Origin: an uncultured Gammaproteobacteria bacterium
GTDB lineage: Bacteria; Patescibacteriota; Patescibacteriia; 2-01-FULL-39-33
Length of the DNA: 64,000 nt
Direction of reading: 5' to 3'
Assembly: GCA_964512625.1 (NCBI GenBank)
Contig: CAZEKG010000003.1
Span: 22,953-86,952 of the forward strand
Shown: piece by piece, positions 38,546 to 55,607 of the stretch
Layout: the number at the start of each line of letters is the position of its first letter
Numbering within the stretch: position 1 is the first letter of the stretch
Notes under the pieces: model-generated
What the model saw: only the letters and a program-made list of their open reading frames with translations
What the model was told of the DNA's origin: nothing
The model's database searches: none
Program-made: the position numbers and the translations under genes

Positions 38546-38749
38546 TTAAGCGGCCATTTGGACGTTAACGGCATTCATACCCTTAGGAGATGATTCTGTT
38601 TCGAAAGAAACAGCATCGCCTTCGTGTAAATCAGAGAATTGAACTCCGACCAATGAATTGGCGTGGAAGAACAAATCTTTCTCTTGGCCTTCGGCAGTAA
38701 TGAAACCGAAGTTTTTCTCTTTTAATAGGGTTTTGATAGTACCTGTCAT
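38546..38749 (-). CDS. cspA: cold-shock protein (CspA family)
   Basis: GTIKTLLKEKNFGFITAEGQEKDLFFH RNP1/RNP2 motifs; 67 aa. Confidence 0.9.
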   Translation of the reverse strand: MTGTIKTLLKEKNFGFITAEGQEKDLFFHANSLVGVQFSDLHEGDAVSFETESSPKGMNAVNVQMAA

Positions 38750-42449: not shown

Positions 42450-42473
42450 AATTATAAAAAAGAGATATATAAA

Positions 42474-42500
42474 AATCCCCGTTGAGAGGGGATTTTTATT
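42474..42500 (+). terminator. terminator of the ABC exporter operon
   Basis: AAAATCCCCGTTGAGAGGGGATTTTT hairpin followed by a T-run. Confidence 0.7.
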
Positions 42501-42812
42501 TTTGGGTCAGGCACTGTCGGGTCTTATAACAGTGCTCGAGGATAAAGAGTATATGGTTACTTTACGGGAAAAAATGAATAATATCAAGAAAGTTGCCAAG
42601 TTTTACAATTACGACCTCCTGCTAGCCAAAAAGTAAAACGTTATTGCCCCTTGTCTGCCCTTGGGGCGAGCTTTGTACCCCGGGTAGACCTTTGACACCT
42701 CCTGCGACATAGCCCACCGGTTTGACGAATTTTGAAAGCTTGGGACGATTTGCTTAACTTCGGAAAAGTTAAGCAAATATGACTCCGCTAGACTTGTTCT
42801 CCGGGCGAGCGT

Positions 42813-43136
42813 ATGTTCTTGCTTGCTATGGAAGACGATGACATTGAGGCGATCCTTCGGGACGCTAAAAACATAAGAATGCCACATCGACGCGGATCAT
42901 TTAATCCGTTATCTTCACTTCCGGAACCTAAAGCCAAGATCAAACAAGCGATTAAAGAACGAATCAGACTCTTGGCTGGTGCTTATATCTCGCTCGCTGG
43001 ATTTGTTGATGATGACGATATCAGGTTTGCCGAGGATAATCCAAAGTCAAAGAAAACTCGAGCAATATATCTCAAAGTGCTCGAGGACATGGAAATAGCA
43101 AAGAAAGAGATGCGGGAGTTCAAACTGTTAAATTAA
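42813..43136 (+). CDS. hypothetical protein (GC-rich segment at the left edge of the defense/mobile island)
   Basis: 107-aa ORF in a ~500-nt GC-rich patch; weak RBS; converges on the STAND gene with a 33-nt gap. Confidence 0.3.
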   Translation: MFLLAMEDDDIEAILRDAKNIRMPHRRGSFNPLSSLPEPKAKIKQAIKERIRLLAGAYISLAGFVDDDDIRFAEDNPKSKKTRAIYLKVLEDMEIAKKEMREFKLLN

Positions 43137-43169
43137 ATACCCCTTAGTTTAATCGTAATTTGTTTCTTT

Positions 43170-46100
43170 CTAAATTATATTTTCCCTCAAAATATATCCA
43201 ACAACAGAGCCTTTTACTATTAAGAAATCTAGTACCACCAAAACCTCGTCTTTCAATTTTTTGGTTTCTCTTATTTTTGTGCGGTTTTTATAAATATACT
43301 TTCTGATCAGATTTTCAATATAGAAAAGAGTATTGACTTCAAGCTTAACAGTAAGCAGATTTTGATTTTTTACCAGCATATCTGACACCCAGAGTACGCC
43401 ATCATCCATATAATTACTTCCGATATCGTTCAGTAGTTTTGAAATTGCGTAAAGGGTTGAGGCACATTGTCCTATACTCTCTGAAATTTCTTTAAAAAAA
43501 ATTTTATCGTCATCTCTGAACGTATGCCATTCGGTAGCAGATTCCTTCCACGGATTTTGAGCAAAAAGATAGCTTTTAATAATTTTATCAACGTACCAAT
43601 ATCCATCTCCCTTTTTGCAAACCTCAACTATCTTCTCCTTAAACATTCTCCAGACTTCCCAAAATACCTCATACGAATTTAAGTAATCCTCAGCAGATAT
43701 AAATTCTTCAAAGAGATTAGCGATTGCCTCTGAACTATTAAATTTATCCAGAAATGGTTTAAGATATTCTCGAATTTCTTCTTTTGGAGAACTTAAGACG
43801 AAATAGGCTAATTTTTCTAGAAAACCATGCCTGACCTCATAATCAACCCTGTCTTCTCTGTCGCTTGAAATTAATTTTTCGGCAAAAGCAGAAATAATTT
43901 TTTTGACTATTATTTTATGTTCTTCATTTTTTGTTTTTAGAGGAACTAATTGGAAAGCTGTTTTTAATGTATGCAAATCTACCTGCTCAATATTTCCTAC
44001 ATCACTGATTAATAATTGATTGTTTTGGATTTTCTCTAAATAAGCCTTGTTTTCTTTCAAGAACTTTTTCATTACATCACCGTCTTTTATATCGTACTGA
44101 TTCTTTTTATATTTTTCTTGGCGTATCTTTTCTCTCAGGCCATCAAATTTTGGTTTCAATAATAGATAACCCAATAATACTGACTGGGTATCATCAAAGT
44201 TGGTGCCCCATAGTTTATGAATGGCTGTAATTGAAAATGCGTTAAAACTTGTACCAGCCATATCAATTGGGTAATAGTTGAACAAGTTAAACAACAAAAT
44301 TTCTTTTATTTTTGCTTTTTCTTTTGGAAATTTCTCAAATAGAAGTGGTAATACCGAGATTGCAGATTGTGCACCATCGATTGTCTGATATCGGTAATTG
44401 GGTCCAGAAGACAAAGACACTACTTCTAAAACGATTCGGTTGCAAAACTCAGCTTCTTCTTTTGAAAGCTTTTCAAAAAAATCTCTAATCATGACAGAAC
44501 AAACTTCTACTGGGATAGAATTATTTAAAAGATAGAAACCTTCTTCTTCAGAATGCTGAAGTTTAAAAGACTCGGGTTTCTTTGATGCTTTTAATTTTGC
44601 AAGGATTTCTTCGGCTTCTTTAAGCGCAAGGCTTGGGTTGTCTTCATACTGTTTGTACTGCTTATATTTTTCATCATTTACGAACCTAAAATTTGCCCAT
44701 AATTTTAATTGCAGGTATTTAGAAGATTCGGAATTCTTTTCTAAAGATTTTTCACTGTACTCTTTTAATTCCGGATCAATTTGAGGATTAAAATTAATCA
44801 AATATCCATCGTCAGTTTTTTCTGAGACAAGATTCATCTTCCTTCTATCCATTCTTGCCAAATAAAGTCTCCAGGTTTTATCCTGTTCTGTCTCCGCTGA
44901 TGGATTGGGTAATTTTTTATAGTAATCATCCAAAATTTCCCATAATACCCGTTGTCTGTTTTTTGACTCTTCTTCGTTTAAACCCTCGTTTCGAAATAAT
45001 TGGTAATTTAAAAATAGATTTTCTAAAGACAATTTTCTGTGCTTATCATCACAAGCCTGTAGTCTTTCTGACTCATGAAATTCATTCTTTGAGTTACCAC
45101 CAAATGCTTTTAGTGATAAAAGCATACTCTTGTGCCCTTGGTCTAAAACCAACCTACTCGTATCGTAAAGGAAAAAGTTTTTCGTTTTAAAAAGAATTTT
45201 AGCGATATTAAAGGTCTTTTCAGGATATGCCAAAACAATGCTTGCTATTATGCCTGAGATAGAAGCTGATTTTGAATTTCTGAGAAGATACAAGAGCCAG
45301 CTTTCCAAGGTCTCTGAATTGGCAACCTTCCCATTTTCAAGAAAAAACTTTTCTAAAGCCATATGAATGGATTCTAGAACATGGGGAGAAGTTTGCGTTC
45401 CTCTGAATGTACACCAAAGTCTACAACTTATGTATTGCTTTATTGATTTATCTTTTTCAATAATAACTTCAACTTCTTCGACTTCGTATTTAGCAAATTC
45501 GGACTTAGCAAAATATTCGACTGTTTTATTTGTAAATTTTAATATGAAGTCTATTGTTTCTTGAAGCGAGGATTGAAGAAGCCAGTAAATCGGAGTCTGA
45601 TATGAACTGGCTGGGAAATAATCCAAATGGTCGTCTTCCATGTCAAAATACTCTTCTACTCCCATCCCCGAACGGGTATGGAAATGATCTTTAGGGGGCG
45701 TAAAAGACCAAAAAAGATCGGCTATTTGCAAAACATATTTTGGAAGGATCTTGGCAATTGTTGCACCTTCGAATTTAGTCAAAATAATTTCAGACAAATC
45801 ATGATATGGATCCCTATGGTTTTTCCACTTATTTTTTACGACTTCTTTAAAAATCTCCTCTAACTCATTTTTAATTTCAGCAGAGCTATAAATAATAGTT
45901 TGTAAGAGATTATTTTTTGTATCATCATCGGAAATATAAACATCTTTTTCTATAGTCCATTGATAGTATTTTAGTGCCATTAAGCCGGAATATTTTGTCG
46001 TTTCTCCCTCTTTAAATTTACTAGTCCAGTCGTGGATTATCGGTAAGATAAAATGGATATTTTGAATACCAACTTGATCAAAATTATCAAAAACAAATTT

Positions 46101-47975
46101 AATAAGGCATTTCCACCCCTGTCCTTTCGGTCTCGTTAAAATGTATTTGAGAGAAAAGATATTTAAATTTTGAACTCCTAATTGTTTGAAAAAGTCATCG
46201 TCAACTTCCTTACAAGCAATCCTTAAAAGGAAAAATATTCTATGTAATAAGCTTTCTTCGTATTTATAGTTGACGGTTAGAGATTGTACGACTTTGGATG
46301 AATTGTCGTACTTAACTACTTTTTCAGGTACACTTAGCAATTCATTTTTAAACAATTCAAAGAAAACAGAGGAGAAATCGGAAAGTAAAACCGAGACCAA
46401 TATTTCATCTTTCCAAAAAGATTTTATATCTTTATCCTTAATAGTTTGTTCGATAAAACTTTTGATCTCACTATTTTGTAACAACAACTTTTCCGATACC
46501 CATTTCCTGAAAGCACGACGCAAAGGCAAAGAGCTGCCTAGATTTTGAAAAAAAGTTTTATTGTCAGTCTTTTTCCCGAATTCAATCTCAATATTTTTCT
46601 CAAGTGCCCACTCCTCATAGATATCATGAGTGATGAAATATCCGTGAGGTGACTCATATCCTAAAATCCCGTCCTTCTTTAGCTCGTTATCTAGAATCCC
46701 TGATTCACAATCTGTATTAATAAAGAATTGTCCATCAGTTGCTCTCTGCAATGCCATTTTTAAAAAGCATTGTTCTCTCGCGGGTTTAGATTTAATGATT
46801 ATCTTATTCCACAGTTTGTCTTTAAAATCAGTATAGTTTATTTGTTCACCGTCCTTGTAGTATTTCAAATATTCGTTTAAGTAAAATGGATTTTTAATAA
46901 GGTCTACTAATTTTTCATCGTTGGGGAGAGAAAAATGATATATTTCAGAAAGTTTACTTAGTTCTTTTGCTTCTAAATTTTGTAAATTGATGTTTAAAGG
47001 GGCAATTTTATAAATCTCAAAAAACTGATAATTTAAATCTTCTAGATAATTATCTCTTGTTGTAAAAATAACTTTCCAATTTTCCTTAACCGCTATAGAT
47101 AAAAACTCCTTAAAGGGATCGGGGTTTTTTAAATCCAACAGTTTTTCTGCGGAATCAATTACGATAATTTTATCGCCATCATTTTTATGCCCATCTAGAA
47201 AATTCTGAAAACTGTATCCTGTAAAAAATTCGCTTATATTTCTCAGCTCAAATTCGGTTGCCTTAAAAATATAGAAGGGCATCTTACCTTTTGTTTCTTC
47301 ATAGAAGTCTTTGATGGTCGCTGTCTTTCCAACCCCACCAACACCACTTAAAATTAAAACTTTTTCTGGGCTGACCTTTATTTTTTCCAAGTCGCCACTT
47401 CTGTCTATTTTAATATTTTGACCATTAAAGATTATGGCCGTTTGTATCTCATTTAAAATATTTTCTGAATGTTCCTGTTGATTTTTTATGAGGTCAAATA
47501 TACTTTTGTCTAAACTAAAAAAATGTTTAGCTATTATTTCATTATCAACAGAAACAAAATTTGATTCAAAAAAACTAGCAGTTCTCCATTCTAATTTGAT
47601 ATTAAGTGTATTCGCCTTGCTTTCTATGTCTTTTTTCCCTTGAGGTTCTTTGCCTTTATTTTGTCCCCACTCCTCATTGGTATACAAGATTAATTTCGTA
47701 ATATTTATATAATCTCTCTTTGTCTTTTCAAGGATATTGATTAATTCAGTTGAGTGATTTGATAATGATGTACTATAAAATTTAGCCTGCCAACCTATTA
47801 CTTCTTCTTTTTCTTGAATAGGATCTGTTTCTATGGCAGATTGATTTTTATAACGAAAAATCCCAGTTGTTTTATTAAACTCTCTACAAAACAACGAATA
47901 GCAAAACCACTCAAAGTTATTTTGAGGATTTTCGCTAAATTTTGCTCTAAAGATGTCCCATGATGGCTTAATCAT
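43170..47975 (-). CDS. NB-ARC/STAND NTPase, 1601 aa: N-terminal putative nuclease-like effector + P-loop NTPase + ~1100-aa helical C-terminal region (Avs/bacterial-NLR-like antiphage candidate)
   Basis: Walker A GVGGVGKT (aa 211-218), Walker B KIIVIDSAE (aa ~270), RNBS-B-like VIFTTRD (aa 302-308), GLPL-like NPFYL. N-terminus has E22...D51...Q63-A-K65, reminiscent of PD-(D/E)xK. Last gene of an RM operon, 5-nt gap to the upstream gene. Confidence 0.7.
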   Translation of the reverse strand: MIKPSWDIFRAKFSENPQNNFEWFCYSLFCREFNKTTGIFRYKNQSAIETDPIQEKEEVIGWQAKFYSTSLSNHSTELINILEKTKRDYINITKLILYTNEEWGQNKGKEPQGKKDIESKANTLNIKLEWRTASFFESNFVSVDNEIIAKHFFSLDKSIFDLIKNQQEHSENILNEIQTAIIFNGQNIKIDRSGDLEKIKVSPEKVLILSGVGGVGKTATIKDFYEETKGKMPFYIFKATEFELRNISEFFTGYSFQNFLDGHKNDGDKIIVIDSAEKLLDLKNPDPFKEFLSIAVKENWKVIFTTRDNYLEDLNYQFFEIYKIAPLNINLQNLEAKELSKLSEIYHFSLPNDEKLVDLIKNPFYLNEYLKYYKDGEQINYTDFKDKLWNKIIIKSKPAREQCFLKMALQRATDGQFFINTDCESGILDNELKKDGILGYESPHGYFITHDIYEEWALEKNIEIEFGKKTDNKTFFQNLGSSLPLRRAFRKWVSEKLLLQNSEIKSFIEQTIKDKDIKSFWKDEILVSVLLSDFSSVFFELFKNELLSVPEKVVKYDNSSKVVQSLTVNYKYEESLLHRIFFLLRIACKEVDDDFFKQLGVQNLNIFSLKYILTRPKGQGWKCLIKFVFDNFDQVGIQNIHFILPIIHDWTSKFKEGETTKYSGLMALKYYQWTIEKDVYISDDDTKNNLLQTIIYSSAEIKNELEEIFKEVVKNKWKNHRDPYHDLSEIILTKFEGATIAKILPKYVLQIADLFWSFTPPKDHFHTRSGMGVEEYFDMEDDHLDYFPASSYQTPIYWLLQSSLQETIDFILKFTNKTVEYFAKSEFAKYEVEEVEVIIEKDKSIKQYISCRLWCTFRGTQTSPHVLESIHMALEKFFLENGKVANSETLESWLLYLLRNSKSASISGIIASIVLAYPEKTFNIAKILFKTKNFFLYDTSRLVLDQGHKSMLLSLKAFGGNSKNEFHESERLQACDDKHRKLSLENLFLNYQLFRNEGLNEEESKNRQRVLWEILDDYYKKLPNPSAETEQDKTWRLYLARMDRRKMNLVSEKTDDGYLINFNPQIDPELKEYSEKSLEKNSESSKYLQLKLWANFRFVNDEKYKQYKQYEDNPSLALKEAEEILAKLKASKKPESFKLQHSEEEGFYLLNNSIPVEVCSVMIRDFFEKLSKEEAEFCNRIVLEVVSLSSGPNYRYQTIDGAQSAISVLPLLFEKFPKEKAKIKEILLFNLFNYYPIDMAGTSFNAFSITAIHKLWGTNFDDTQSVLLGYLLLKPKFDGLREKIRQEKYKKNQYDIKDGDVMKKFLKENKAYLEKIQNNQLLISDVGNIEQVDLHTLKTAFQLVPLKTKNEEHKIIVKKIISAFAEKLISSDREDRVDYEVRHGFLEKLAYFVLSSPKEEIREYLKPFLDKFNSSEAIANLFEEFISAEDYLNSYEVFWEVWRMFKEKIVEVCKKGDGYWYVDKIIKSYLFAQNPWKESATEWHTFRDDDKIFFKEISESIGQCASTLYAISKLLNDIGSNYMDDGVLWVSDMLVKNQNLLTVKLEVNTLFYIENLIRKYIYKNRTKIRETKKLKDEVLVVLDFLIVKGSVVGYILRENII

Positions 47976-47980
47976 CGTAA

Positions 47981-48745
47981 TTACTTTATTTTTTGAAATA
48001 CAAAAAGGTGCTCGTGCATTATTAATAAAAAGTTAGCGGCCTTAGACTTATCTACCCAGAAACCTGTCGCCTTGCAGTTAAACTGTCTCTTAATTATGTC
48101 CTCCTTTAAAAGAAAGCCTGCTTTCAAGAAACGGTCCATAACCTTATAAGCTAGTGGCTGATACATCTTATTTCGTCTGGTATCTCCCATTAAAATAGAA
48201 CAAAATTTGCCGGGCTTCAAAACCCTAAAAAATTCCTTAGCAACCTTTTCCATTTCATCACAAAAAGCTTCGATGTCGTGGATATTTGATAAATCATCAA
48301 CCAGCTTGCCCTCGCTGTATTTGATGATATCTACATACGGAGGATGAGTAAGAACAAAATCAACGGTATTGTCTTTTATTTTCTCAAGATTGCGAGAATC
48401 CCATTTAAAGCCTCTTTGCCAGCTTTTATTCTCAACTTTAAAATCCAAACATTTCTTTGTCCGGTCCAAAGCTTCTTGATTTACATCAGAGTAAACAATA
48501 TTCCTATTGAGAATTTTTGCTTCGATTGCGGTCGTGCCACCACCAATCATAGAATCGAGCAAAATATCACCTTCCTTTGAATATCGCAAAATGAGATTTC
48601 GAGCCACTTCAGGCGACCAATTTCCTCTCCAATCTGAAGTATGTGTTGCCCAATTACCTCGGCGAGGAAAAGCCCAAACCGTGGTACATTCTAGCTCGAA
48701 GTCATCAGGATGTAATTTTATTTCTGTATCCTTTTTCGTTGTCAT
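47981..48745 (-). CDS. SAM-dependent DNA methyltransferase (N6-adenine/N4-cytosine type; motif I GGGTT before motif IV HPPY)
   Basis: ILLDSMIGGGTT (motif I) ~75 aa before LTHPPYVD (motif IV). Third gene of the M-R-M cassette, analogous in position to M.MboC/DpnA. Confidence 0.7.
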   Translation of the reverse strand: MTTKKDTEIKLHPDDFELECTTVWAFPRRGNWATHTSDWRGNWSPEVARNLILRYSKEGDILLDSMIGGGTTAIEAKILNRNIVYSDVNQEALDRTKKCLDFKVENKSWQRGFKWDSRNLEKIKDNTVDFVLTHPPYVDIIKYSEGKLVDDLSNIHDIEAFCDEMEKVAKEFFRVLKPGKFCSILMGDTRRNKMYQPLAYKVMDRFLKAGFLLKEDIIKRQFNCKATGFWVDKSKAANFLLIMHEHLFVFQKIK

Positions 48746-48751
48746 AATGAG

Positions 48752-49609
48752 TTACCATGTTAGTTTGTCCAAGGCACCAGCCTCGAGCATGTTCAAATTA
48801 AAAACATACTCATTATGGTTATAAGTTTCTTCAAGAGGTCTCTTCGTTGTGTTCCAACCCAAGCCATCAGTTATCCAAATGAAGTCGATATTTTGTTCTT
48901 TAAGTTCGCTATACAAACTTTTGAATTCACCGCATACGGCTTTTAGCTTTGATCCGCCACCATTATAAAAATTGGTTTCAAATAATTTAATCTTTTTATT
49001 TTTAGGGTTATATACGGCGAAATCAAAACTTCTTTCTGATTTATCTATTTTTACATCCACGCCCCACTTACTTTTTATATTAGTGGCACGAGCCTGTGCC
49101 ATGTATTCAAACCCGTTTTTATTACAAAAATCACTGATGAATGTTCCAACAATTTCTTCCATCAAAGAACCGCCCCGGTTCTTTCGGCCATTACTATCAA
49201 GACCGACTTCAACTCCCATAACATAATCGACTAAGTTTTTAACGCCGTCTTTTTTGAATAAACGAGCGAGACCAGATTTATCTAAAAATTCATAATATTT
49301 CTCTGAATCTTGTTCCTTACCTGAAAAATCAAAGAAGTCTGAGTTCTTAGTAACCTTATCAAATACCTCAAGCTTGTTTTCTCTGACCGCCAAAAGCACG
49401 GGCAAAGCCTTAACAATGTCTGGGTTAGAGCTATAGAGTTTCTTAAATTCGCCCTCGAGGTCATCTTTACCAAGAAGATAATTGAGTTTATTAAGAGCAA
49501 TTTCTAAATCCGAGCTGTTTGAAAAAACCTTCTTCCAGTTTACGAAATAATCCCAAGTCTTAATTGAGCTTTTAAAGGTAGCTATTAGGTTATTAAAATC
49601 TTTTTGCAT
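48752..49609 (-). CDS. type II restriction endonuclease, DpnII/MboI family (GATC)
   Basis: NLVDYVMGVEVGLDSNGRKNRGG, FDFAVYN...TNFYNGGGSKL, FIWITDGLGW closely track the R.DpnII family sequence as I recall it. Confidence 0.8.
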   Translation of the reverse strand: MQKDFNNLIATFKSSIKTWDYFVNWKKVFSNSSDLEIALNKLNYLLGKDDLEGEFKKLYSSNPDIVKALPVLLAVRENKLEVFDKVTKNSDFFDFSGKEQDSEKYYEFLDKSGLARLFKKDGVKNLVDYVMGVEVGLDSNGRKNRGGSLMEEIVGTFISDFCNKNGFEYMAQARATNIKSKWGVDVKIDKSERSFDFAVYNPKNKKIKLFETNFYNGGGSKLKAVCGEFKSLYSELKEQNIDFIWITDGLGWNTTKRPLEETYNHNEYVFNLNMLEAGALDKLTW

Positions 49610-49616
49610 ATTATAT

Positions 49617-50573
49617 TTAGTAATTAGTTATTAAGACTTCCGTGACTTTTCCTCTTCCTGAACCATTGGAATTAATGGCTCGGCCAGCCTGAACCTTATT
49701 AATGCGTACCCCTTTAATTCCAGAATATATTTTATTGATGAATGGAGTGTCAGAATTTGAAAGCATAACGAAACAACCTCTTTTATTTAACTCAACAAGA
49801 GTATTACGAAGTTCTGTCTGCTCTTTATCCAAAAATGATTCAGCCGTGTACGAAGTAAAAGAAGCAGTCTTACTAACTGGGTAATATGGTGGATCAAAAT
49901 AAATAAAGTCACCCTTTTTTGCTTTTTTAAGAACTTCTTTATAATCCTGATGTTTTATATCAATATTCTGAAGTGCCTTTGATACCTTTCGCAAATTATC
50001 TTCATCGCAAATAAGAGGATTGGTATATTTACCAAACGGCACATTAAATCCTCCCTTACTATTTACCCGATACATTCCATTAAAACAGGTGCGATTGAGG
50101 AATATAAAACGAGAAGCTACTGCAACATCGCTTAGCTTGTTTGGGTCCTGAGCACGAACTTCCAAAAAGTAGTCCTTATCGGTTTTGTGCTTCTTAAGTG
50201 AAACGATTAATTTTTCAAGGTCATTTTTTATGACATTATATGTGACAACAAGTTCTTTGTTTAAATCAGAGAGAAACCCTTCTTCTGGGAGAAGATCAAA
50301 GAATACCGCACCACCACCGACAAACGGTTCAAAGTACCTGCTTTTCTTAGGATCAAAGTTTTCTGGTGGATAAAGATTCATCCTTCTGAATTGAGCGAGA
50401 AGTTGTCGCTTGCCACCAACCCATTTAACAAACGGCTTCGGCTTCTCTGCAATGATGCGTGCCGAATCATCGAGTAGGTTTGTTTTATCAGCAAGAGAAA
50501 AAACTCTGCGAGCAAAAATCGCATTTATATCGAAAGTTTTTTGAATAGTTAGAATTGATTGTTTTGTTGTCAT
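49617..50573 (-). CDS. Dam-family (D12 class) N6-adenine DNA methyltransferase, GATC-type
   Basis: KWVGGKRQLL, FEPFVGGGAVFFDL (motif I), DFIYFDPPYYPVS (motif IV), and overall colinearity with M.DpnII/Dam. Confidence 0.85.
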   Translation of the reverse strand: MTTKQSILTIQKTFDINAIFARRVFSLADKTNLLDDSARIIAEKPKPFVKWVGGKRQLLAQFRRMNLYPPENFDPKKSRYFEPFVGGGAVFFDLLPEEGFLSDLNKELVVTYNVIKNDLEKLIVSLKKHKTDKDYFLEVRAQDPNKLSDVAVASRFIFLNRTCFNGMYRVNSKGGFNVPFGKYTNPLICDEDNLRKVSKALQNIDIKHQDYKEVLKKAKKGDFIYFDPPYYPVSKTASFTSYTAESFLDKEQTELRNTLVELNKRGCFVMLSNSDTPFINKIYSGIKGVRINKVQAGRAINSNGSGRGKVTEVLITNY

Positions 50574-50581
50574 AAATCTTT

Positions 50582-50782
50582 TTACTTTTTATTTGACTTA
50601 CCAGAAATGTTGCTGGTATTTTCCAAAAACTTTTGCAAATCCACTTCCGTTATTCTCCAACTTCCAATTTTTGATGCCTTTAGTTTCCCAGAGTCAATAT
50701 AACGGTTTATAGAGCGACAACTAACTCTTAATATTTTGGCGGTTTCCTCGATAGTGAAGAGTTTATCAATTTTGGTAGTCAT
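50582..50782 (-). CDS. excisionase-family (AlpA/Xis-like, MerR-superfamily) HTH protein, first gene of the RM-STAND operon
   Basis: 66 aa, IEETAKILRVSCRSINRYIDSGKLKASKIGSWRI is the typical excisionase-family HTH; 8-nt gap to the Dam gene. Confidence 0.6.
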   Translation of the reverse strand: MTTKIDKLFTIEETAKILRVSCRSINRYIDSGKLKASKIGSWRITEVDLQKFLENTSNISGKSNKK

Positions 50783-51015
50783 AAAAGATTTCTTTGCTTA
50801 TAAGTTTATACTTACATTTTACCGCTTACGGATTTCATTGTCAAAAGTGGCAGATTTTGTCATAATACACTTGTAAGCTTTGTTAATCGGATATAATCAA
50901 CTACATACGATTATATTCATAAGTATCCGAAAGTTAGTGAATGGGAGGCATAAAATGGGCCCGATTCACTAAAAAGCTAACTGGAAGTAAGGATTAAGCT
51001 TATATCCAGTAAAAA

Positions 51016-51696
51016 ATGAGTATGAAAATGAAAAAGGCCTCCATGGCCACTAAATACAAATTTAATATAAGAAAAGCGGTGGAATTTGCATCGACCTATC
51101 GGTTATCTATTGCCACCACTGAAAAGATTTTGCGATCTTCAATGAAGTCTGCTGGCATAGCTGATGGCGATCAGATTATAAAGCACAACCAACCGGCGAT
51201 CGGACTTCTTACCAAAGAAATCATTGAGACGAAACTCGAAGTAAAAGGTATCCGGTCCCTCTTGGAACGCCGAACCAGTAAATTTGAGGGGCTGACCGAA
51301 TATGATCAGCAATTTATAAAAACATTTGCTCGGGAGGCGGCGATTTCTTTTGCTGAATATTTTGCAAAGAGCACAAATACTCCAGCCGGCAAGACCATCG
51401 TATACATCTCATCCGACTGCGAACTGTATCGTGAGCCAAAGAGTCAGTATTGTTTTAGAATGGAAGCCCCGAGTAAAAGAATGAAGCTAATCACCGCAAT
51501 GATGGCCACCAAAAAATACATACCGACCCAAACATTGGCTGACATCACTGGATTGGCAAGCATTAAATCGGTTCAAAGTGCGGTCCAAGCAATAAGGCGA
51601 TCCGCAGAAAAGAAACTTGGGCTCTTAAAATTTATCGACGGCTGGCAGGATTCCGGGTACCGCATCAATCCAAACATAATGTTGAAAAAAGAATAA
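51016..51696 (+). CDS. putative winged-helix (OmpR/CadC-type C-terminal) DNA-binding protein
   Basis: C-terminus TQTLADITGLASIKSVQSAVQAIRRSAEKKLG...GYRIN resembles the trans_reg_C winged helix. Confidence 0.4.
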   Translation: MSMKMKKASMATKYKFNIRKAVEFASTYRLSIATTEKILRSSMKSAGIADGDQIIKHNQPAIGLLTKEIIETKLEVKGIRSLLERRTSKFEGLTEYDQQFIKTFAREAAISFAEYFAKSTNTPAGKTIVYISSDCELYREPKSQYCFRMEAPSKRMKLITAMMATKKYIPTQTLADITGLASIKSVQSAVQAIRRSAEKKLGLLKFIDGWQDSGYRINPNIMLKKE

Positions 51697-51839
51697 AGCT
51701 CGTAAGGTACTCTTAAGACCCCTGTTAATAACTTTTTACAAAAGCGACCAAAGCGGTCGTTTTTTTGTTTTGAAAATTCAATCAAAGAGTATGTAAAGAG
51801 GCGCAACTCGATTGGTATAAAGAATATGCAAACATCTTT

Positions 51840-52022
51840 ATGCCGAAGCCAATAATCACAAAGAAAATACCGCCTCTCACCCCAGCTCAAATGGAGGAAA
51901 TTTTCATGGACAGATTAGCCGATCTGATTGTCCGACTTTTGGATTATCGCTACGAGCAAAAAGAGAAAGAAAAACAATCTAATAATCAAAATGAATATGA
52001 AAAACCAAACACCAGACAATAA
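51840..52022 (+). CDS. small hypothetical protein (60 aa)
   Basis: ATG ORF with protein-like helical composition; overlaps the next gene by ~30 nt in another frame. Confidence 0.3.
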   Translation: MPKPIITKKIPPLTPAQMEEIFMDRLADLIVRLLDYRYEQKEKEKQSNNQNEYEKPNTRQ

Positions 52023-52254
52023 TTTTATTACCAGCGACTTCTACACGGCCTGTCTGCTCTTGGCCAACGACTATCACCTTGTCGGCATAAACAAGACCGA
52101 CAGCCGACGCTTCCGCTTTATCTTCACTGATGAACCGGATCGGGTCCAAATCGTTGCCGGATACTTTGACGGCCTAACGAGCGTTAACACTCGCAAGTTT
52201 GTAAACGCCATTAAAGAGCTGAAGTCGCTCATGTATAACGACGCGATCAGTTGA
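51991..52254 (+). CDS. small island-associated protein (DUF5659-like by memory)
   Basis: MNMKNQTPDNNFITSDFYTACLLLANDYHLVGINKTDSRRFRFIFTDEPDRVQIVAGYFDG; start placed at the internal ATG because the upstream part is Lys-rich junk. Confidence 0.35.
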   Translation: MNMKNQTPDNNFITSDFYTACLLLANDYHLVGINKTDSRRFRFIFTDEPDRVQIVAGYFDGLTSVNTRKFVNAIKELKSLMYNDAIS

Positions 52255-52273
52255 AAATAATCAAATATGAAAT

Positions 52274-53050
52274 ATGGAAAATTTGCCATTCGAAATAGAT
52301 AACAATGATTACGTAAAGCTTCCACGAAGCATCAAAACCGCCCTTGTGGACGGCTATTTGAGTTTTGAGGAATACTCGGTCCTCGTCTGGCTGTGGATCA
52401 CTGCCAACCCACGAATGGGTAAAGCACACGTAAGTTATGCCGGGCTGTCCAAGGACTTCAAAGAAAAGTATTCCAAGAATCACATCAATCGACTAATGCT
52501 GAACTTGAAGCATAAGAAGTGGGTATGGTTTGCTGGACAGCAAGGTCGCAGAAGTTCGTTCCATGTTGATATCGCCAATTACCCCTTATCAAATGGTGGT
52601 TTTGTCAACATTGAAGTACGACAGAAACAGAAGTTCGGCAGAAGTGAGGATGATATTACAGAGCATTCACCAGCAGAAGTGCCGACAGAAGTTAGCGACG
52701 TTCAGCAGAAGTTGAAAGACGACAAAAACGCTTTAGTGGATAGGTTTTCTTTCAATTCTGAAAGTTCGCTCGGCAGAAGTTCCAAGAACGATAACGAAAA
52801 AGAAAATAAAAACAACCGATCGAATCGTGGTCGACAGCCGGTAAGAGAATTCTCTCCCAAGTCTTACGAGGAACAAAAATGCTGTGAGATCGCCCAAGAG
52901 CTGGGAGAAAAGGATATGACCTTCATCCTATCGGCTCTGAAAAGGTACGGACTGACGAGAATTGAGGAAGCTTACCGGTCTGTAATGGATCAACCGAGCG
53001 ATAAGGTTAAAAACAGGGGTGCATACTTTAATCGTTTGCTAAATCTTTAA
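52274..53050 (+). CDS. putative replication-initiator-like / winged-helix DNA-binding protein
   Basis: N-terminal LSFEEYSVLVWLWITANPRMGKAHVSYAGLSKDF...NHINRLMLNLKHKKWVWF looks like a rep/replisome-organiser winged helix; sits next to iteron-like repeats. Confidence 0.35.
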   Translation: MENLPFEIDNNDYVKLPRSIKTALVDGYLSFEEYSVLVWLWITANPRMGKAHVSYAGLSKDFKEKYSKNHINRLMLNLKHKKWVWFAGQQGRRSSFHVDIANYPLSNGGFVNIEVRQKQKFGRSEDDITEHSPAEVPTEVSDVQQKLKDDKNALVDRFSFNSESSLGRSSKNDNEKENKNNRSNRGRQPVREFSPKSYEEQKCCEIAQELGEKDMTFILSALKRYGLTRIEEAYRSVMDQPSDKVKNRGAYFNRLLNL

Positions 53051-53051
53051 A

Positions 53052-53447
53052 ATGCCCAAGCTTAATTACTTAAGACCAAAACATAAGCGAGCGATTGAGA
53101 TGAGGTGGCAGAGTATTCACTACGATGAAATTGCTAGTGAGGTGGGAGTCACTCTTGATGCGATTAAGTCGTGGTTCAGAGCCAATGGATTTTTGAGAGA
53201 AGCCTACAACCAATACGCCGAGGATCAGATTTTGATCCGAAAACTTCAGGACAAACAGGAAAGAATAAATACACTTAACAGCAACAATCAGCAACAGGAC
53301 GCAACAAATTCGGCTAATTTGCCGGTTTTCAAAGCCTTTCAGAAACTGTCGCCAAAAGATCAAGATGATGTTATGAAAAGATTTAACGAACTAAACAGAG
53401 GGGCCGAAAAGAAAATAAATACACTAAATGGAATTAAACGGAACTAA
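53052..53447 (+). CDS. HTH protein (terminase-small-subunit-like / sigma70 region-4-like N-terminus)
   Basis: LRPKHKRAIEMRWQSIHYDEIASEVGVTLDAIKSWFRANGFLREAYNQY helix-turn-helix pattern; 2 nt after the upstream gene. Confidence 0.35.
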   Translation: MPKLNYLRPKHKRAIEMRWQSIHYDEIASEVGVTLDAIKSWFRANGFLREAYNQYAEDQILIRKLQDKQERINTLNSNNQQQDATNSANLPVFKAFQKLSPKDQDDVMKRFNELNRGAEKKINTLNGIKRN

Positions 53448-53614
53448 AGTACACCAAATCACACCAACTTACACTAACTAACACCAAAAAATGAAAAGAA
53501 TAAATACACTTAGACCCGATAAAATCCAACATTATCCAACAATAGAGCGGAAAAATCGCCAGGCCACCTAATCCGATCCTAAATAACCGGTGAAAGTGGA
53601 AATAAATACACTTA
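53264..53614 (+). repeat. four iteron-like direct repeats GAAA(GA)ATAAATACACTTA
   Basis: Copies at 53264-53277, 53414-53427 (one mismatch), 53499-53512, 53601-53614. Also CAGTTAAAT(G/A)CAG x2 and ACACCA-rich motif at 53450-53490. Confidence 0.6.
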
Positions 53615-53760
53615 GATACAGTTAAATGCAGTTAAATACAGCGTTTAGAGAAAAATCTGAACTGTGGGCAACTCAAGCTTAGCTTGTCGACAAAATTAGT
53701 ATAGGGTGTCAGTGAAAGGTCTCTTAATAAAAATTAAACGATAATTAAAATGAAAATAAT

Positions 53761-55461
53761 ATGGAACATGCATTAATTTACTGCCGAGTCTCAACTGAGG
53801 AACAAGCCGAGGACGGCCACCATTCCCTAGCGACTCAGCTCAAGCTCTGCAAGCGAGCGATCGAGGAAAGCAACAAATATAAATTAGCCGAGGACGGCGT
53901 CTTTGAAGACCCGGGCCGATCAGCCACCAATATGAATCGCCCCGGACTGCAAGATATGCTACTGCGAATTCAAGACGACAAAGCGATCAAGGCAGTTTTT
54001 ATTCAAGACACTGACCGACTGGCGAGAAATGCTCTTGATCACATGCAGATCAAGGCAATCATGAAAAAGCATGATGTTGAATTATTTTCTGTCTCCCAGC
54101 CGGGCATTACTGATAGCCCCGAGGGAAACTTTATGGACTTGGTTATTGCCGGTGTGAACCAACTCCAATCACAAATAACCTCCAGAAAGACCCTGAAAAG
54201 CCTTGAACAAAAATTCTGGGAGGGTTGGTGGCCGACTGGTGTGGCCGTTGGATATTTAAATGCTGGCGAACCGGACGATGAGAAAAAGAGAATTATTATT
54301 GTAGACGAAGAACGAGCCCCACTTATTCAAGAGGCATTTAAAATGTATGTGACCGGAGATTATTCAGTCTTTGAAGTTCGTGACGCTTTATACAAAAAAG
54401 GTTTTAGAACTCACGCCGACAAACGACTGGCTCACAGCAAGATGATTGAGATCTTAAAAAATCCTTTTTATTACGGTGAGATGAGGTGGCGAGGATTAGT
54501 TAACACCGGAAAACATAAACCACTTATAGATAAAGATTTGTGGGAACGAGTCCAGCTGGTTATGGCCGAACATAACCGCTATGCCTGCCGACGGCAAAAG
54601 TTTAACTTTATTCTGCGAGGCCTAACCTTTTGTGCCAACTGCGGACAAAGATACACCGCCGAACACCACCCTAAGAAAAATAAATCTTATTACCACTGCA
54701 ACCGGTCCGGAGATCAGATTAAATGCAGTGATAAATACGTGGAAGTTTGGGATATAGAACAGCAGGTCGCTGATTTATTTAAGTACATAGAATTTACTCC
54801 TGATTTTACCGACAGACTGGTGGCCAAAATTGAAAAGATTTACAGCGGTCGCAAAGAAGTGATTAATAAAGATAAGAAAGCCCTGAACACTCAAAAGATG
54901 ATGTTTGAAAAGAAACGAGACACTGCCGAGGAAAAACTATTTGCCGGACTTATCACGGATGACGACTTCTCCAGAGTAAAAGTAAAAATCAAAGAACAGC
55001 TCGAGTTATTGCAAGACGAACTGTACGCTCAAGATAAAAAGCTAAACATGAGAATAGACGAATTGCAGGATATGCTTTTATTCGTCCGCAACGCTTACGA
55101 AGCCTATACCAAATCGCCGGATGAAATGAAGAGATTATTTCTCGGTCTTTATTGGGAGAGGTTTGAAGTAGCCGACAAAAAAATCCAAACCGTAATACCA
55201 TCACCAATCATCAGAGGTCTGATGCAAGCGGAGGATCTAGTCTTTACCAAGAAATACAAGGAGATTGCCGGTCCGAGGATAATAACCGACTTAGCCGTAG
55301 AATTTACACCATTCATAGCTGGTAAATCAAAATCCAAGATTGCCCCTAAAACGCAAAAATCCCGACAAATTGCCGAGATTCCTGCAATGATATCCAATCA
55401 ACCGAACTCGGTTATATTAGATACCGTTTGGGGTGGCTATCGAGAATTGAACTCGAGTTAA
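53761..55461 (+). mobile_element. large serine recombinase (integrase)
   Basis: Resolvase catalytic domain ALIYCRVSTEEQ (Ser nucleophile), recombinase domain, zinc-ribbon CANCGQRY...YYHCNRS, C-terminal coiled-coil; 566 aa. Confidence 0.85.
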
Positions 55462-55535
55462 CGGTACCACAAACCGCTGTGTTAACCACTACACCATAGC
55501 CACCAAATTATTACATCGGCATAGACCGATATTTG

Positions 55536-55607
55536 TGTCCCCGCCAGGAATCGAACCTGGATAGCCAGCTTAGAAGGCTGGTGTTCTATCCATTGAACTA
55601 CAGGGAC
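55536..55607 (-). tRNA. tRNA-Arg (UCU)
   Basis: Acceptor GTCCCTG/CGGGGAC, anticodon stem CCAGC/GCTGG with loop CTTCTAA, T-arm CCAGG-TTCGATT-CCTGG. Its 3' end faces the recombinase gene 75 nt away. Confidence 0.8.

Follow-up and report, generated by a model that had tools for sequence, protein, structure and literature searches.

A probable site-specific mobile island with a large serine recombinase at tRNA-His(GUG) genes of Parcubacteria

Genes and features of the locus

The window, that is, the whole analysed stretch of 64,000 nucleotides, comes from an ultra-small bacterium (Parcubacteria/CPR) and contains a minus-strand cargo operon, a divergent set of small plus-strand genes and a gene for a large serine recombinase (LSR) whose final 33 nt overlap a tRNA-His(GUG) gene (Table 1). 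The latter lies between the LSR gene and tRNA-Arg(UCU) (55535-55607), and it was overlooked in a preliminary description of this DNA that took tRNA-Arg(UCU) as the landmark; all ORFs listed in that description are present. The cargo operon, over which GC falls to 0.30-0.37, encodes a DpnII-type restriction-modification (R-M) system and a 1601-aa AAA/STAND-like protein. This position, flanked by the backbone and the left end, is taken up by different defence genes in relatives, and the cargo of the family is mostly defence: when the regions upstream of the backbone were surveyed in 30 loci, their 84 protein clusters were mostly type I, II and III R-M, and also included AbiEii, reverse transcriptases, Fic, NUDIX, DUF4143/AAA_14 and S24-LexA.

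The backbone order is conserved (small ORF, DUF5659, 258-aa winged-helix protein, TerS-like HTH protein, LSR), and the early recognition of the DUF5659-like gene is borne out by Pfam. The first gene, encoding 226 aa, is allelic; by tblastn of related loci it was found only in L114, L123, L153 and L154, and weakly in L126, and most relatives encode an unrelated protein of 193-197 aa in its place. L114, L123, L153 and L154 have also kept the divergent intergenic region, as well as the HTH_17 and 226-aa genes on either side of it. Neither the 226-aa protein, for which the proposed winged helix thus finds no backing, nor the 107-aa left-end protein matched anything in Pfam, PHROG, NCBIfam or PDB. 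In a circular form, the 107-aa gene would fall downstream of the full-length integrase gene.

As had been proposed, the 566-aa protein is a large serine recombinase, with three Pfam domains (Resolvase, E = 2.3e-25; Recombinase, E = 1.9e-17; Zn_ribbon_recom, E = 2e-10); it further matches the PHROG integrase (E = 3e-82) and the catalytic domain of the TP901-1 integrase (E = 2.8e-9), and has 810 homologues. Its N-terminal resolvase domain is common to invertases (phrog_125, E = 1e-20), but the domain set of a complete LSR, recombinase and zinc ribbon included, the failure to find flanking inverted repeats, and the recurrence of the same enzyme where element and host DNA meet in dozens of hosts make a resolvase or invertase acting on a local invertible segment extremely improbable. 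The same holds for a cryptic prophage remnant, given that the scanned backbone proteins and the most frequent cargo families of the relatives include no phage structural genes.

Table 1. Coordinates of the features in the window
Feature	Coordinates	Strand	Evidence or content
attL	42470..42545	+	Host arm, GGGT core 42504-42507, element arm P' = CAGGCACTGTCGGGTCTTATAACAGTGCTCGAGG
Detached 3' end of integrase gene	42505..42636	+	Junction Gly codon, 42 codons (QALSGLITVLEDKEYMVTLREKMNNIKKVAKFYNYDLLLAKK) and stop; in frame with LSR across attP
GC-rich conserved spacer with perfect 11-bp hairpin (42750-42776)	42637..42812	+	86-90% DNA identity to L125, L139
Conserved left-end gene, 107 aa	42813..43136	+	90-94% aa identity in L116, L122, L125, L139
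Variable cargo operon	43170..50782	-	Pfam; low GC
AAA/STAND-like protein, 1601 aa	43170-47975	-	Pfam
N6_N4 MTase	47981-48745	-	Pfam
DpnII endonuclease	48752-49609	-	Pfam
D12 Dam-type MTase	49617-50573	-	Pfam
HTH_17	50582-50782	-	Pfam
Divergent intergenic (regulatory) region, cargo operon vs. backbone	50783..51015	.	ORF map
First backbone gene, 226 aa, allelic	51016..51696	+	tblastn
Small conserved backbone gene, 60 aa	51840..52022	+	55-73-aa genes at same position in L002-L004, L166
DUF5659 backbone gene, 87 aa	51991..52254	+	PF18903, E = 3.5e-8; found in 48 related loci
258-aa backbone protein, with N-terminal winged helix and C-terminal helical domain joined by disordered linker	52274..53050	+	AF2 model
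TerS-like protein, 131 aa, HTH and long helix, allelic among relatives	53052..53447	+	PHROG; AF2
Repeat region	53264..53641	+	Four exact AATAAATACACT copies (53264, 53414, 53499, 53601), all on the + strand
LSR, integrated-state form, 566 aa	53761..55461	+	Three Pfam domains; PHROG integrase
attR	55385..55470	+	Element arm P ...TCGGTTATATTAGATACCGTTT, GGGT core 55431-55434, host arm = tRNA-His acceptor and T arm
tRNA-His(GUG), integration target, intact	55429..55503	-	ARAGORN; Rfam tRNA, 62.7 bits

Element ends and their comparison across hosts

Comparison with about 80 related metagenome loci placed the element ends at the two GGGT cores and gave a length of 12,927 bp. The integrated mobile element of about 12.5 kb with its own defence cargo that had been proposed is thus recovered, at 12.93 kb, driven by the LSR and beside a tRNA gene; its left boundary, sought at 42.6-43.2 kb, was nearly right, with the actual end slightly further to the left. 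GGGT is the sole sequence common to both ends, in agreement with the earlier failure to find a direct repeat of the tRNA 3' end on the left, and a serine integrase would not be expected to leave a long direct repeat. Within GGGT, GT is favoured as the crossover dinucleotide, as inferred from dyad symmetry only.

At attR, the P arm is unchanged in 64 junctions, and host-specific sequence begins at the base after TGGGGTG; the constant arm, TCGGTTATATTAGATACCGT(T/C)TGGGGT, gives way to tRNA-His bodies that differ from host to host. Among the 60 usable right junctions, 53 have the element arm adjoining a tRNA-His 3' end, with 42 distinct tRNA sequences, and 7 are not beside tRNA-His; the proposed mechanism does not account for L096/L119 and L125. 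A position next to tRNA-His is also seen for LSRs at 64% and 55% identity. The integration target is therefore tRNA-His(GUG), and tRNA-Arg(UCU) is merely a neighbour. On the host side of attL stands the rho-independent terminator that belongs to the ABC-transporter gene upstream; this arm ends in ...GGGGATTTTTATTTTT. The identical P' arm stands behind unrelated host flanks in L125 and L155 (three unrelated flanks overall), and the blastn homologues of window positions 42495-43136 map to the far end of related elements. In L139, the P' arm comes directly after the LSR-side P arm; together with L117, this locus forms a single 45.5-kb contig with two different elements in tandem, which ends at tRNA-His and contains this attP-type (P-P') joint. 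We recovered no empty tRNA-His site from the source host or a near-identical strain, and saw no free circular form, the attP-type joints stemming from the tandem array and from short ORFs.

These comparisons bear on whether the locus is a fixed, immobile defence island, a domesticated remnant whose LSR became inactive through the tail loss that integration causes. Decayed copies do occur beside tRNA-His in relatives (the 3.6-kb relic L155, LSR 3' fragments in L157, L158 and L145, and an N-truncated LSR in L125), and the integrated LSR lacks its conserved tail. However, the LSR ORF in the window is intact and has the conserved RVST motif with the catalytic serine, both att arms, the tail ORF and the full backbone are intact, and LSRs that are 96-98% identical lie beside many different tRNA-His alleles, which implies recent movement. 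Far from being one block fixed at one locus, the family is found at differing tRNA-His sequences and between unrelated flanks, with differing cargo, as relics and in tandem. We consider a fixed island unlikely. Taken together, the findings make it highly probable that the window, from about 42,508 to 55,434, holds one copy of an integrative element, a site-specific mobile island with an LSR whose family is widespread in Parcubacteria (CPR/Patescibacteria); this degree of confidence covers the explanation as a whole. The family is previously undescribed; its backbone is fixed, and its anti-phage cargo can be exchanged.

Displacement of the integrase gene's 3' end

The final 8 residues of the integrated LSR and its stop codon are supplied by the antisense strand of the host tRNA-His. 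As read from the aligned junctions, insertion removes the last 42 codons of the integrase gene, which come to lie at the other end of the integrated element. The LSR-tail frame is unbroken in the P-P' joint of L139 and in the annotated protein P0268, which, like the annotated protein P0284, reads LSR...DTVWG-QALS...AKK; 24 clusters of short ORFs with unrelated N-termini each have the tail as their C-terminus. The stop falls at the identical codon in all four left ends, and in the left-end comparison the pN/pS of the tail is 0.15-0.43, with most changes in the third position. Since the integrase frame spans attP, a 600-aa integrase can be encoded by the excised or tandem form only. In the more distant clade of L163 (55% LSR identity), no homologue could be detected for either the tail or the 258-aa gene, so neither is a universal feature of the family at large. 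No recombination directionality factor was identified.

In the mechanism that we propose, the LSR would recombine the element attP with the host tRNA-His(GUG) gene at its extreme 3' end, with the crossover inside GGGT, at acceptor positions 71-72/discriminator, a position that would leave the tRNA intact; the discriminator/CCA region and the 3' trailer would then be supplied by the element. Between hosts, the target is conserved in its tRNA-side half only, and the other half is any sequence that happens to stand downstream of the tRNA, often a terminator. As this half is free, the occupied site (attR) is probably reusable, which would account for the tandem arrays. The circular or tandem form encodes the 600-aa enzyme with the conserved 42-aa tail, and the integrated gene ends in a few arbitrary residues from the antisense tRNA.

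Repeats, TerS-like protein and transfer in relation to known systems

The preliminary description viewed the 258-aa protein as rep-like and the four direct repeats as iteron-like, and raised an integrated plasmid. In such a replicative element, the excised circle would replicate itself, with the 258-aa protein as Rep initiator and the AATAAATACACT copies as its iterons. The repeats are real and non-random: at up to one mismatch, AATAAATACACT was found 6 times vs. 0.51 expected, none of 100 shuffles reached six, and the exact copies are accompanied by phased 10-nt tandem repeats (53423-53488, two adjacent TRF arrays, and 53603-53641). The N-terminal winged helix of the 258-aa protein is likewise found in many Rep proteins. 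However, this protein has no family match in Pfam, PHROG, NCBIfam or PDB, even by a 29-sequence profile, its AF2 model gave only generic MarR-like winged-helix matches in Foldseek (E > 0.08), and its 164 homologues are without exception unnamed Parcubacteria proteins. The repeats are not adjacent to the 258-aa gene but begin within the gene that follows it and extend beyond that gene, two of the four copies encode INTL in frame within the HTH gene, and most relatives that keep the 258-aa gene have no repeats, which are limited to loci with the window allele of the TerS-like gene. The exact copies noted earlier thus stand, but their iteron role finds no support. Neither a Rep family nor helicase, primase or partition genes were detected in the element, and we regard the plasmid reading as very unlikely.

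Relaxase, conjugation and capsid genes were not detected in the element either, and in the absence of detectable replication, conjugation and capsid genes, cell-to-cell transfer must use a helper. The leading guess for this inferred route is that of a phage satellite (PICI/PICMI-like), with helper-induced excision, in which the element's own TerS-like protein would direct the large terminase of the helper to package island DNA; this concerns the transfer step only and is compatible with the proposed LSR integration. The HTH protein, rightly described as such before (sigma-70 region-4-type), appears to be small-terminase-like, an assignment resting on PHROG E-values of 1e-6 to 1e-9: it matches PHROG TerS families over its full length (E = 1.1e-6 and 6.3e-5), and other, divergent alleles match phrog_2538 TerS (E = 8e-10 and 3e-9). 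In the PDB fold comparison of its AF2 model (pLDDT 80.9), the putative nonameric TerS 2AO9 supplies all of the best 8 matches with its chains, but these are not significant by E-value (0.02-0.03); matches to Terminase_5 and DUF1804 are weak. Consistent with a satellite are also the co-variation of the TerS-like gene with its downstream repeats, a size of 10-20 kb with an end-placed integrase, a divergent regulatory region and defence cargo, and the Bro-N and S24-LexA-like genes among some relatives' cargos; PICMIs, too, are minimal and carry TerS (PMC10803314). Packaging by a helper phage might thus be steered by the TerS-like protein, with the repeats of the window allele as a pac-like site. 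Against this, we found no relatives among IMG/VR viral contigs and no primase/Rep, capsid-remodelling or other phage-interference genes, the repeats are missing from other TerS-like alleles, L166 lacks the TerS-like gene altogether, and no helper phage is known. The satellite route is hence possible, at somewhat less than an even chance.

In SSV-type archaeal integrases and in the integration-dependent immunity of mycobacteriophages, attP lies within a coding sequence and the form of the protein differs by state. Both are tyrosine recombinase systems; the SSV gene is split into two large parts, and the mycobacteriophage repressor loses a C-terminal tag. The present element resembles them in that the integrated and excised states encode differing protein forms, but here the enzyme is a serine integrase, and what it loses is a 42-aa C-terminal tail. 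Tn4451/Tn4453 are LSR elements with TnpX, and the circular joint of Tn4451 creates the tnpX promoter; there, too, the circular form is functionally unlike the integrated form at the joint, with the coupling at the promoter and not, as here, at the 3' coding end.

Islands of the Islander/TIGER type, which use tyrosine integrases, likewise enter a tRNA gene site-specifically at its 3' side, keep it functional and have the integrase gene at the junction, but in their case the tRNA 3' fragment that is displaced is restored by the island, which creates a direct repeat tens of bases long, whereas here there is GGGT only and nothing is displaced. Serine integrases were 'not known for targeting tRNA genes', with only 14 of 297 cases predicted and none proven (PMC7192596). 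PICI/PICMI share with the present element the small size, end integrase, divergent regulators, own TerS-like gene, defence cargo hotspot and integration beside a conserved gene (PMC10803314), but use a tyrosine instead of a serine recombinase; the present element has no recognisable primase/Rep or capsid-redirecting genes, and no relative was found in viral contig collections (IMG/VR). In NCBIfam, the LSR comes closest to CcrB and CcrC, though its scores are far under the Ccr cut-offs (122 vs. 900 bits). SCC/SCCmec, with the LSRs CcrAB/CcrC, differ in their target (rlmH there, tRNA-His here), and the present element in its single recombinase gene, located at the element end and spanning attP, its backbone with DUF5659 and the TerS-like protein, and its CPR host; both are LSR-driven cassettes without transfer genes of their own that target the extreme 3' end of a conserved housekeeping gene and leave that gene active, combine a conserved recombinase region with variable cargo including anti-phage defences, and accumulate in tandem at one site (PMC11470126).

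Recombinase class and the tRNA-His target

In the 566-aa recombinase of the element, Pfam searches identified a resolvase catalytic domain at residues 4–152 (PF00239, E = 2.3 × 10−25), a recombinase domain at residues 183–270 (PF07508, E = 1.9 × 10−17) and a zinc ribbon at residues 284–339 (PF13408, E = 2 × 10−10). The sequence contains the serine nucleophile motif YCRVSTEEQ, it matches the catalytic domain of the TP901-1 integrase (E = 2.8 × 10−9), and the gene has the full large serine recombinase (LSR) architecture (Resolvase, Recombinase, Zn_ribbon_recom). A small serine resolvase or invertase (~180–200 aa, with a C-terminal HTH only) is ruled out by the length of the protein and its three LSR domains, and no flanking inverted repeats were found; the alternative named in the preliminary description, a resolvase/invertase acting on a local invertible segment, is dropped on these grounds. 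We found 810 LSR homologues in the protein collection, those with names coming from Parcubacteria/Paceibacterota-type CPR bacteria, and a scan of metagenome contigs added 76 loci with LSRs 64–98% identical; a scan of IMG/VR with the LSR yielded no relatives.

Features of the element and its target (window positions)
Feature	Position	Strand	Basis or detail
Left GGGT core	42504–42507		shared with attR
Integrase tail frame	42505–42636		42 codons
Spacer	42637–42812		conserved, GC-rich
Spacer hairpin	42750–42776		perfect 11-bp stem, TTGCTTAACTT cggaa AAGTTAAGCAA
107-aa gene	42813–43136	+	
226-aa gene	51016–51696	+	first backbone gene
60-aa gene	51840–52022	+	small ORF
DUF5659 gene	51991–52254	+	Pfam
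258-aa gene	52274–53050	+	
131-aa TerS-like gene	53052–53447	+	Pfam, sigma-70 region-4-type HTH
AATAAATACACT repeats	53264, 53414, 53499, 53601		four exact copies
Phased 10-nt tandem repeats	53423–53488; 53603–53641		TRF; two adjacent arrays in the first
Consecutive 10-nt units	53420–53490; 53603–53641		seven of TACACnAAnT; four of TAAATACAGT
LSR gene	53761–55461	+	Pfam
Right GGGT core	55431–55434		shared with attL
tRNA-His(GUG)	55429–55503	−	ARAGORN and Rfam (62.7 bits)

Over its final 33 nt the LSR ORF overlaps a tRNA-His(GUG) gene that the preliminary description had overlooked; the tRNA-Arg(UCU) which it took as the landmark is merely the next gene beyond. A minus-strand tRNA-His is overlapped by the LSR 3' end in all three relatives whose neighbourhoods were examined, and alignment of right junctions revealed a near-invariant element arm, TCGGTTATATTAGATACCGT(T/C)TGGGGT, followed by tRNA-His bodies that differ by host and carry compensatory changes in the acceptor stem. 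Among the 60 junctions with enough downstream sequence, 53 abut the 3' end of tRNA-His, and these comprise 42 distinct tRNA sequences. In the 43 distinct junction sequences, positions 2–7 (TGGGGT) are invariant, position 8 (G) is nearly so and the next position is four-way variable, indicating that the crossover lies at the extreme 3' end of the tRNA (acceptor positions 71–72, discriminator or CCA). More distant LSRs also abut tRNA-His (loci L166 and L163, 64% and 55% identity). Target recognition by the LSR is apparently one-sided, via one conserved half-site.

At some joints the LSR-side arm (P arm) does not directly precede tRNA-His. In the related loci L112/L140 (11648–12900) it is followed by an arm resembling that at attL (P'), CAGCAACTG, then 1.1 kb and tRNA-Phe, and in L141:2020–2162 and L096/L119:11648–12400 by unrelated sequence; additional tandem or hybrid joints are one possible reading, secondary sites another. 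In close relatives, short-read contigs are interrupted either 33 nt inside tRNA-His or in the stretch separating it from tRNA-Arg (L005 and L006 at their ends, L001 starting at window 55528), which would fit population heterogeneity there, with occupied versus empty or tandem sites. At L003:12001–12963, on a contig shared with L118, a tyrosine integrase and four small unnamed genes lie on the host side directly past tRNA-His/tRNA-Arg, and the tRNA cluster may there be flanked by a second, unrelated island.

Left boundary, attachment sites and copies

Comparison of the window to all related loci (blastn) shows that 42495–43136 is 86–90% conserved at the far end of four other elements (L116, L122, L125 and L139). 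In L139 the homologous segment follows directly after the end of the LSR gene, joining the equivalents of window 55434 and 42500. Motif extraction yielded left junctions in three independent cases, the window, L125 and L155; their host flanks are unrelated, mostly terminator hairpins, and end in GGGT or GGGGT, followed by the common element arm CAGGCACTGTCGGGTCTTATAACAGTGCTCGAGG. The L139 joint consists of P arm, GGGGT and P' arm without a tRNA and is, by its sequence, of attP type. Since L139 and a further locus, L117, are overlapping pieces of one 45.5-kb contig, that contig carries two different elements in tandem; their LSRs are 98% and 86% identical to that of the window, and the second element ends at tRNA-His.

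In the window the shared cores delimit an element of 12,927 bp, and only GGGT is common to attL, attR and the attP-type joint. By eye, the att arms have the symmetry ACCGT-TTGGG-GT-CAGGC-ACTGT, with an outer GTTATA/TATAAC pair offset by 1 nt, and this dyad favours GT as the crossover dinucleotide. The preliminary description had found by eye no direct repeat of the tRNA 3' end at the left boundary. When direct and inverted tRNA repeats were sought with exact 11-mers and by local alignment, all matches were judged to be chance, among them a 13-nt match at 38634 to the tRNA-His T arm (38630–38646), inside a cold-shock protein gene (38546–38749). An LSR is not expected to leave a long direct repeat at the ends of its element. 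Searches for an empty site returned, for the exact nitroreductase protein, only a 1-kb contig stopping between tRNA-His and tRNA-Arg, and no record for the exact ABC-transporter protein; by ABC-transporter synteny in GTDB genomes, the best match had 69% identity and no locus had tRNA-His downstream of the transporter.

Decayed copies also lie beside tRNA-His. L155:6844–10503 is a 3.6-kb relic with both ends, and L157 and L158 (10002–10406) and L145 (10001–10847) hold bare LSR 3' fragments with the last 120–270 codons left. In L125 (11400–12580) the LSR is N-terminally truncated, and ~1 kb of AT-rich DNA separates the P arm (…ACCGTCTGGGGTG) from tRNA-His, whose 3' flank is of an 'unoccupied' type (TTTTTTTTATGGGTGCC, CCA not encoded) and is similar to the host-side arm at attL of that element (TATTTTTTTATGGGT).

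Integrase gene and tail across attP

The core GGT is codon 558 of the LSR. At attR the LSR frame continues into the antisense tRNA, adding GYRELNSS before a stop, and the LSRs of relatives have equally arbitrary ends of 1–70 residues. At attL this GGT leads into a frame of 42 codons, QALSGLITVLEDKEYMVTLREKMNNIKKVAKFYNYDLLLAKK, with the stop at an identical position in 4/4 left ends available, a pN/pS of 0.15–0.43 among them and changes mostly in third positions. At the tandem joint the LSR reads straight through into this tail, the C-terminus of the NCBI-annotated protein P0268 is …SVILDTVWGQALSNLITVLEDKPYMVTLREKMNNIKKVAKFYNYDILLAKK, and P0284 has the same LSR–tail fusion.

An exhaustive phmmer search of the tail against 1.84 billion representatives returned 28 matches, of which 24 are short ORFs (41–160 aa) with unrelated N-termini, all ending in the tail. 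These 24 are gene-caller read-throughs that cross attL and start in no fewer than 20 different host flanks. Just ahead of the junction Gly they mostly have W, L, V or M, which fits host flanks with (T/G)G before GGT. Public gene calls (P0279–P0306) include at least 24 spurious short 'proteins' that start in host DNA and end in the integrase tail; they mark attL junctions and could serve for mapping them.

Because the element starts at the core, the first 15 tail codons are conservedly translatable only from the LSR, in a circular or tandem configuration, so that the excised form encodes a 600-aa enzyme and the integrated form one of 566 aa. The 107-aa gene, 90–94% identical in four relatives, would in the circular form follow the integrase in the same orientation. 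The spacer between the tail and this gene contains a hairpin (see table) and might act as a regulatory element, in RNA or DNA; Rfam gave no match in the spacer. In a distant clade (L163–L165, LSR P0021, 55% identity), the tRNA-His end and DUF5659 are kept, and no homologue of the 258-aa gene, of the 107-aa gene or of the tail is detectable. A candidate left core in L163, TTGGGA (568–573), would add just one codon to the LSR and thus no long tail; the cargo of this clade is a DUF4143/AAA_14 ATPase and a 1516-aa helicase-nuclease.

A tentative and rather doubtful proposal is that the integrase is itself switched by integration, with the 600-aa tailed and the tail-less forms differing in activity, stability or directionality. 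Since attP is part of the LSR coding sequence, the 600-aa enzyme with its conserved 42-aa tail can be made from the excised or tandem form alone, and the integrated form makes a tail-less enzyme ending in arbitrary tRNA-antisense residues; for example, the full-length LSR might be integration-competent and the truncated one locked or excision-prone. If true, the element would have a built-in device for directionality or commitment, undescribed for serine integrases, combined with a target read through a single conserved half-site (the tRNA-His acceptor/T arm); such a target would let CPR bacteria capture defence cassettes in tandem time after time. We found no report in the literature of a serine integrase gene that spans attP. 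Such a gene, together with the apparently one-sided recognition, is relevant to the serine integrases used in genome engineering (directionality control, relaxed half-site needs).

Backbone, cargo and known systems

An ORF map reproduced the ORF coordinates of the preliminary description, and Pfam supported its DUF5659-like, HTH and large serine recombinase assignments. Three relatives share the plus-strand backbone of a first gene of 193–226 aa, a small ORF, DUF5659, a 235–258-aa protein, an HTH protein and the LSR. The reading of the 258-aa gene as rep-like, and of the element as a plasmid, did not hold. All 164 homologues of the 258-aa protein are unnamed, and it had no match in Pfam, PHROG, NCBIfam or PDB, including a 29-sequence profile searched against PDB. 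Its AF2 model (mean pLDDT 58) contains a winged helix at residues 18–100, a disordered linker and a helical C-terminal domain, and Foldseek returned generic MarR-type winged-helix folds only (E > 0.08), so that the name Rep was rejected. Pfam, PHROG and NCBIfam searches found no primase or Rep family, and hence no such replication module, in any backbone protein; the 226-aa and 107-aa proteins had no match in any library searched or in PDB, and we found no paper on this element family or on DUF5659.

The 131-aa HTH protein appears to resemble a small terminase subunit (TerS), by its sequence and its model. It matches PHROG small-terminase families over its full length (E = 1.1 × 10−6 and 6.3 × 10−5), and divergent 144–146-aa alleles in other elements match another TerS PHROG (E = 8 × 10−10 and 3 × 10−9), again along the whole protein, and, weakly, Terminase_5 and DUF1804. 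In the AF2 model (pLDDT 80.9) an HTH is followed by a 40-residue helix, and in the PDB fold search the eight top-ranked structures (probability up to 0.99, E = 0.027) are chains of 2AO9, a putative nonameric small terminase (PMC7672466). A Foldseek search of BFVD gave nothing significant, with a few terminase and phBC6A51-type names among the weak matches, and no Pfam TerS family scored above its cut-off with the protein or its alleles. The TerS-like gene and the first backbone gene each have several unrelated or divergent alleles.

The four iteron-like repeats previously described are real, as exact copies of AATAAATACACT; with up to one mismatch, six matches occur in the whole window, vs. 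0.51 expected. They are not iterons of a Rep. The region from the 258-aa gene to the LSR has length variants of ~713, 543 and 300 nt, and the repeats occur only in the 713-nt variant, where they encode INTL in frame twice within the TerS-like gene and in two degenerate downstream frames; the homologue P0262 reads through a third copy. They lie in and after the TerS-like gene and are missing from most loci that keep the 258-aa gene, and no repeats were found in the other TerS-like alleles, so that a family-wide feature was rejected; the repeats are genuine, but as partners of the TerS-like gene they are specific to one allele. The 10-nt units are helically phased in the A/T-rich stretch after that gene, which suggests bent DNA or a multimer-binding array.

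The earlier reading of a mobile island with its own defence cargo was right, and its ends are now exact. The divergent cargo operon in the window encodes, besides HTH_17 and DpnII, two methylases (D12 Dam-type and N6_N4) and a 1601-aa AAA protein, at a low GC content of 0.30–0.37. The minus-strand cargo differs across the three relatives (SNF2, Bro-N, methylase and ResIII in one; AbiEii, DpnI and HEPN_AbiV in the second; a LexA-like protein, methylase and HinfI in the third). In a census of cargo across 30 loci, which took 84 protein clusters from upstream of the backbone, components of type I, II and III restriction-modification systems were the commonest families, with AbiEii, reverse transcriptases, Fic, NUDIX, DUF4143/AAA_14, RmuC and S24-LexA-like proteins also present.

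The element is a site-specific integrative island. CPR/Patescibacteria have tiny genomes and few described mobile elements, and this family shows how they exchange anti-phage systems, with a compact backbone, interchangeable defence cassettes and one safe site, the tRNA-His end, across dozens of host lineages. Targeting of tRNA genes by serine integrases has been described as not known, with 14/297 cases predicted and experimental proof still required (PMC7192596); the present family is a large, clean natural example of it. The element resembles PICI/PICMI in size, in having an integrase and a TerS-like gene, and in use as a defence hotspot (PMC10803314), and differs in having no replication module; as an indirect check on packaging by a helper phage, the IMG/VR scan gave no relative. 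A satellite lifestyle in CPR bacteria is possible, and should the small-terminase-like gene prove functional in that role, the family would be the first set of phage satellites to be proposed for them. Like SCC, the element uses an LSR, is targeted to the 3' end of a housekeeping gene, carries variable cargo including defences, forms tandem arrays and lacks transfer genes (PMC11470126); it differs in its recombinase, for which Ccr membership is ruled out by score (NF047343 CcrB 122.5 bits and CcrC 95.5 bits, both vs. a cut-off of 900), and in its target, tRNA-His (53/60 junctions) and not the 3' end of rlmH (orfX). Classical tRNA islands use a tyrosine integrase and leave a displaced tRNA fragment at the far end, whereas this element has no Phage_integrase domain and no tRNA repeat of at least 11 nt at its left end. 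An iteron-type plasmid replicon is rejected as well, since the 258-aa protein matched no known Rep family and the repeats are neither adjacent to nor co-inherited with its gene. An attP inside a gene is known from SSV-type archaeal integrases and from the integration-dependent immunity of mycobacteriophages, both with tyrosine recombinases; the element recalls these systems, here with a serine integrase.
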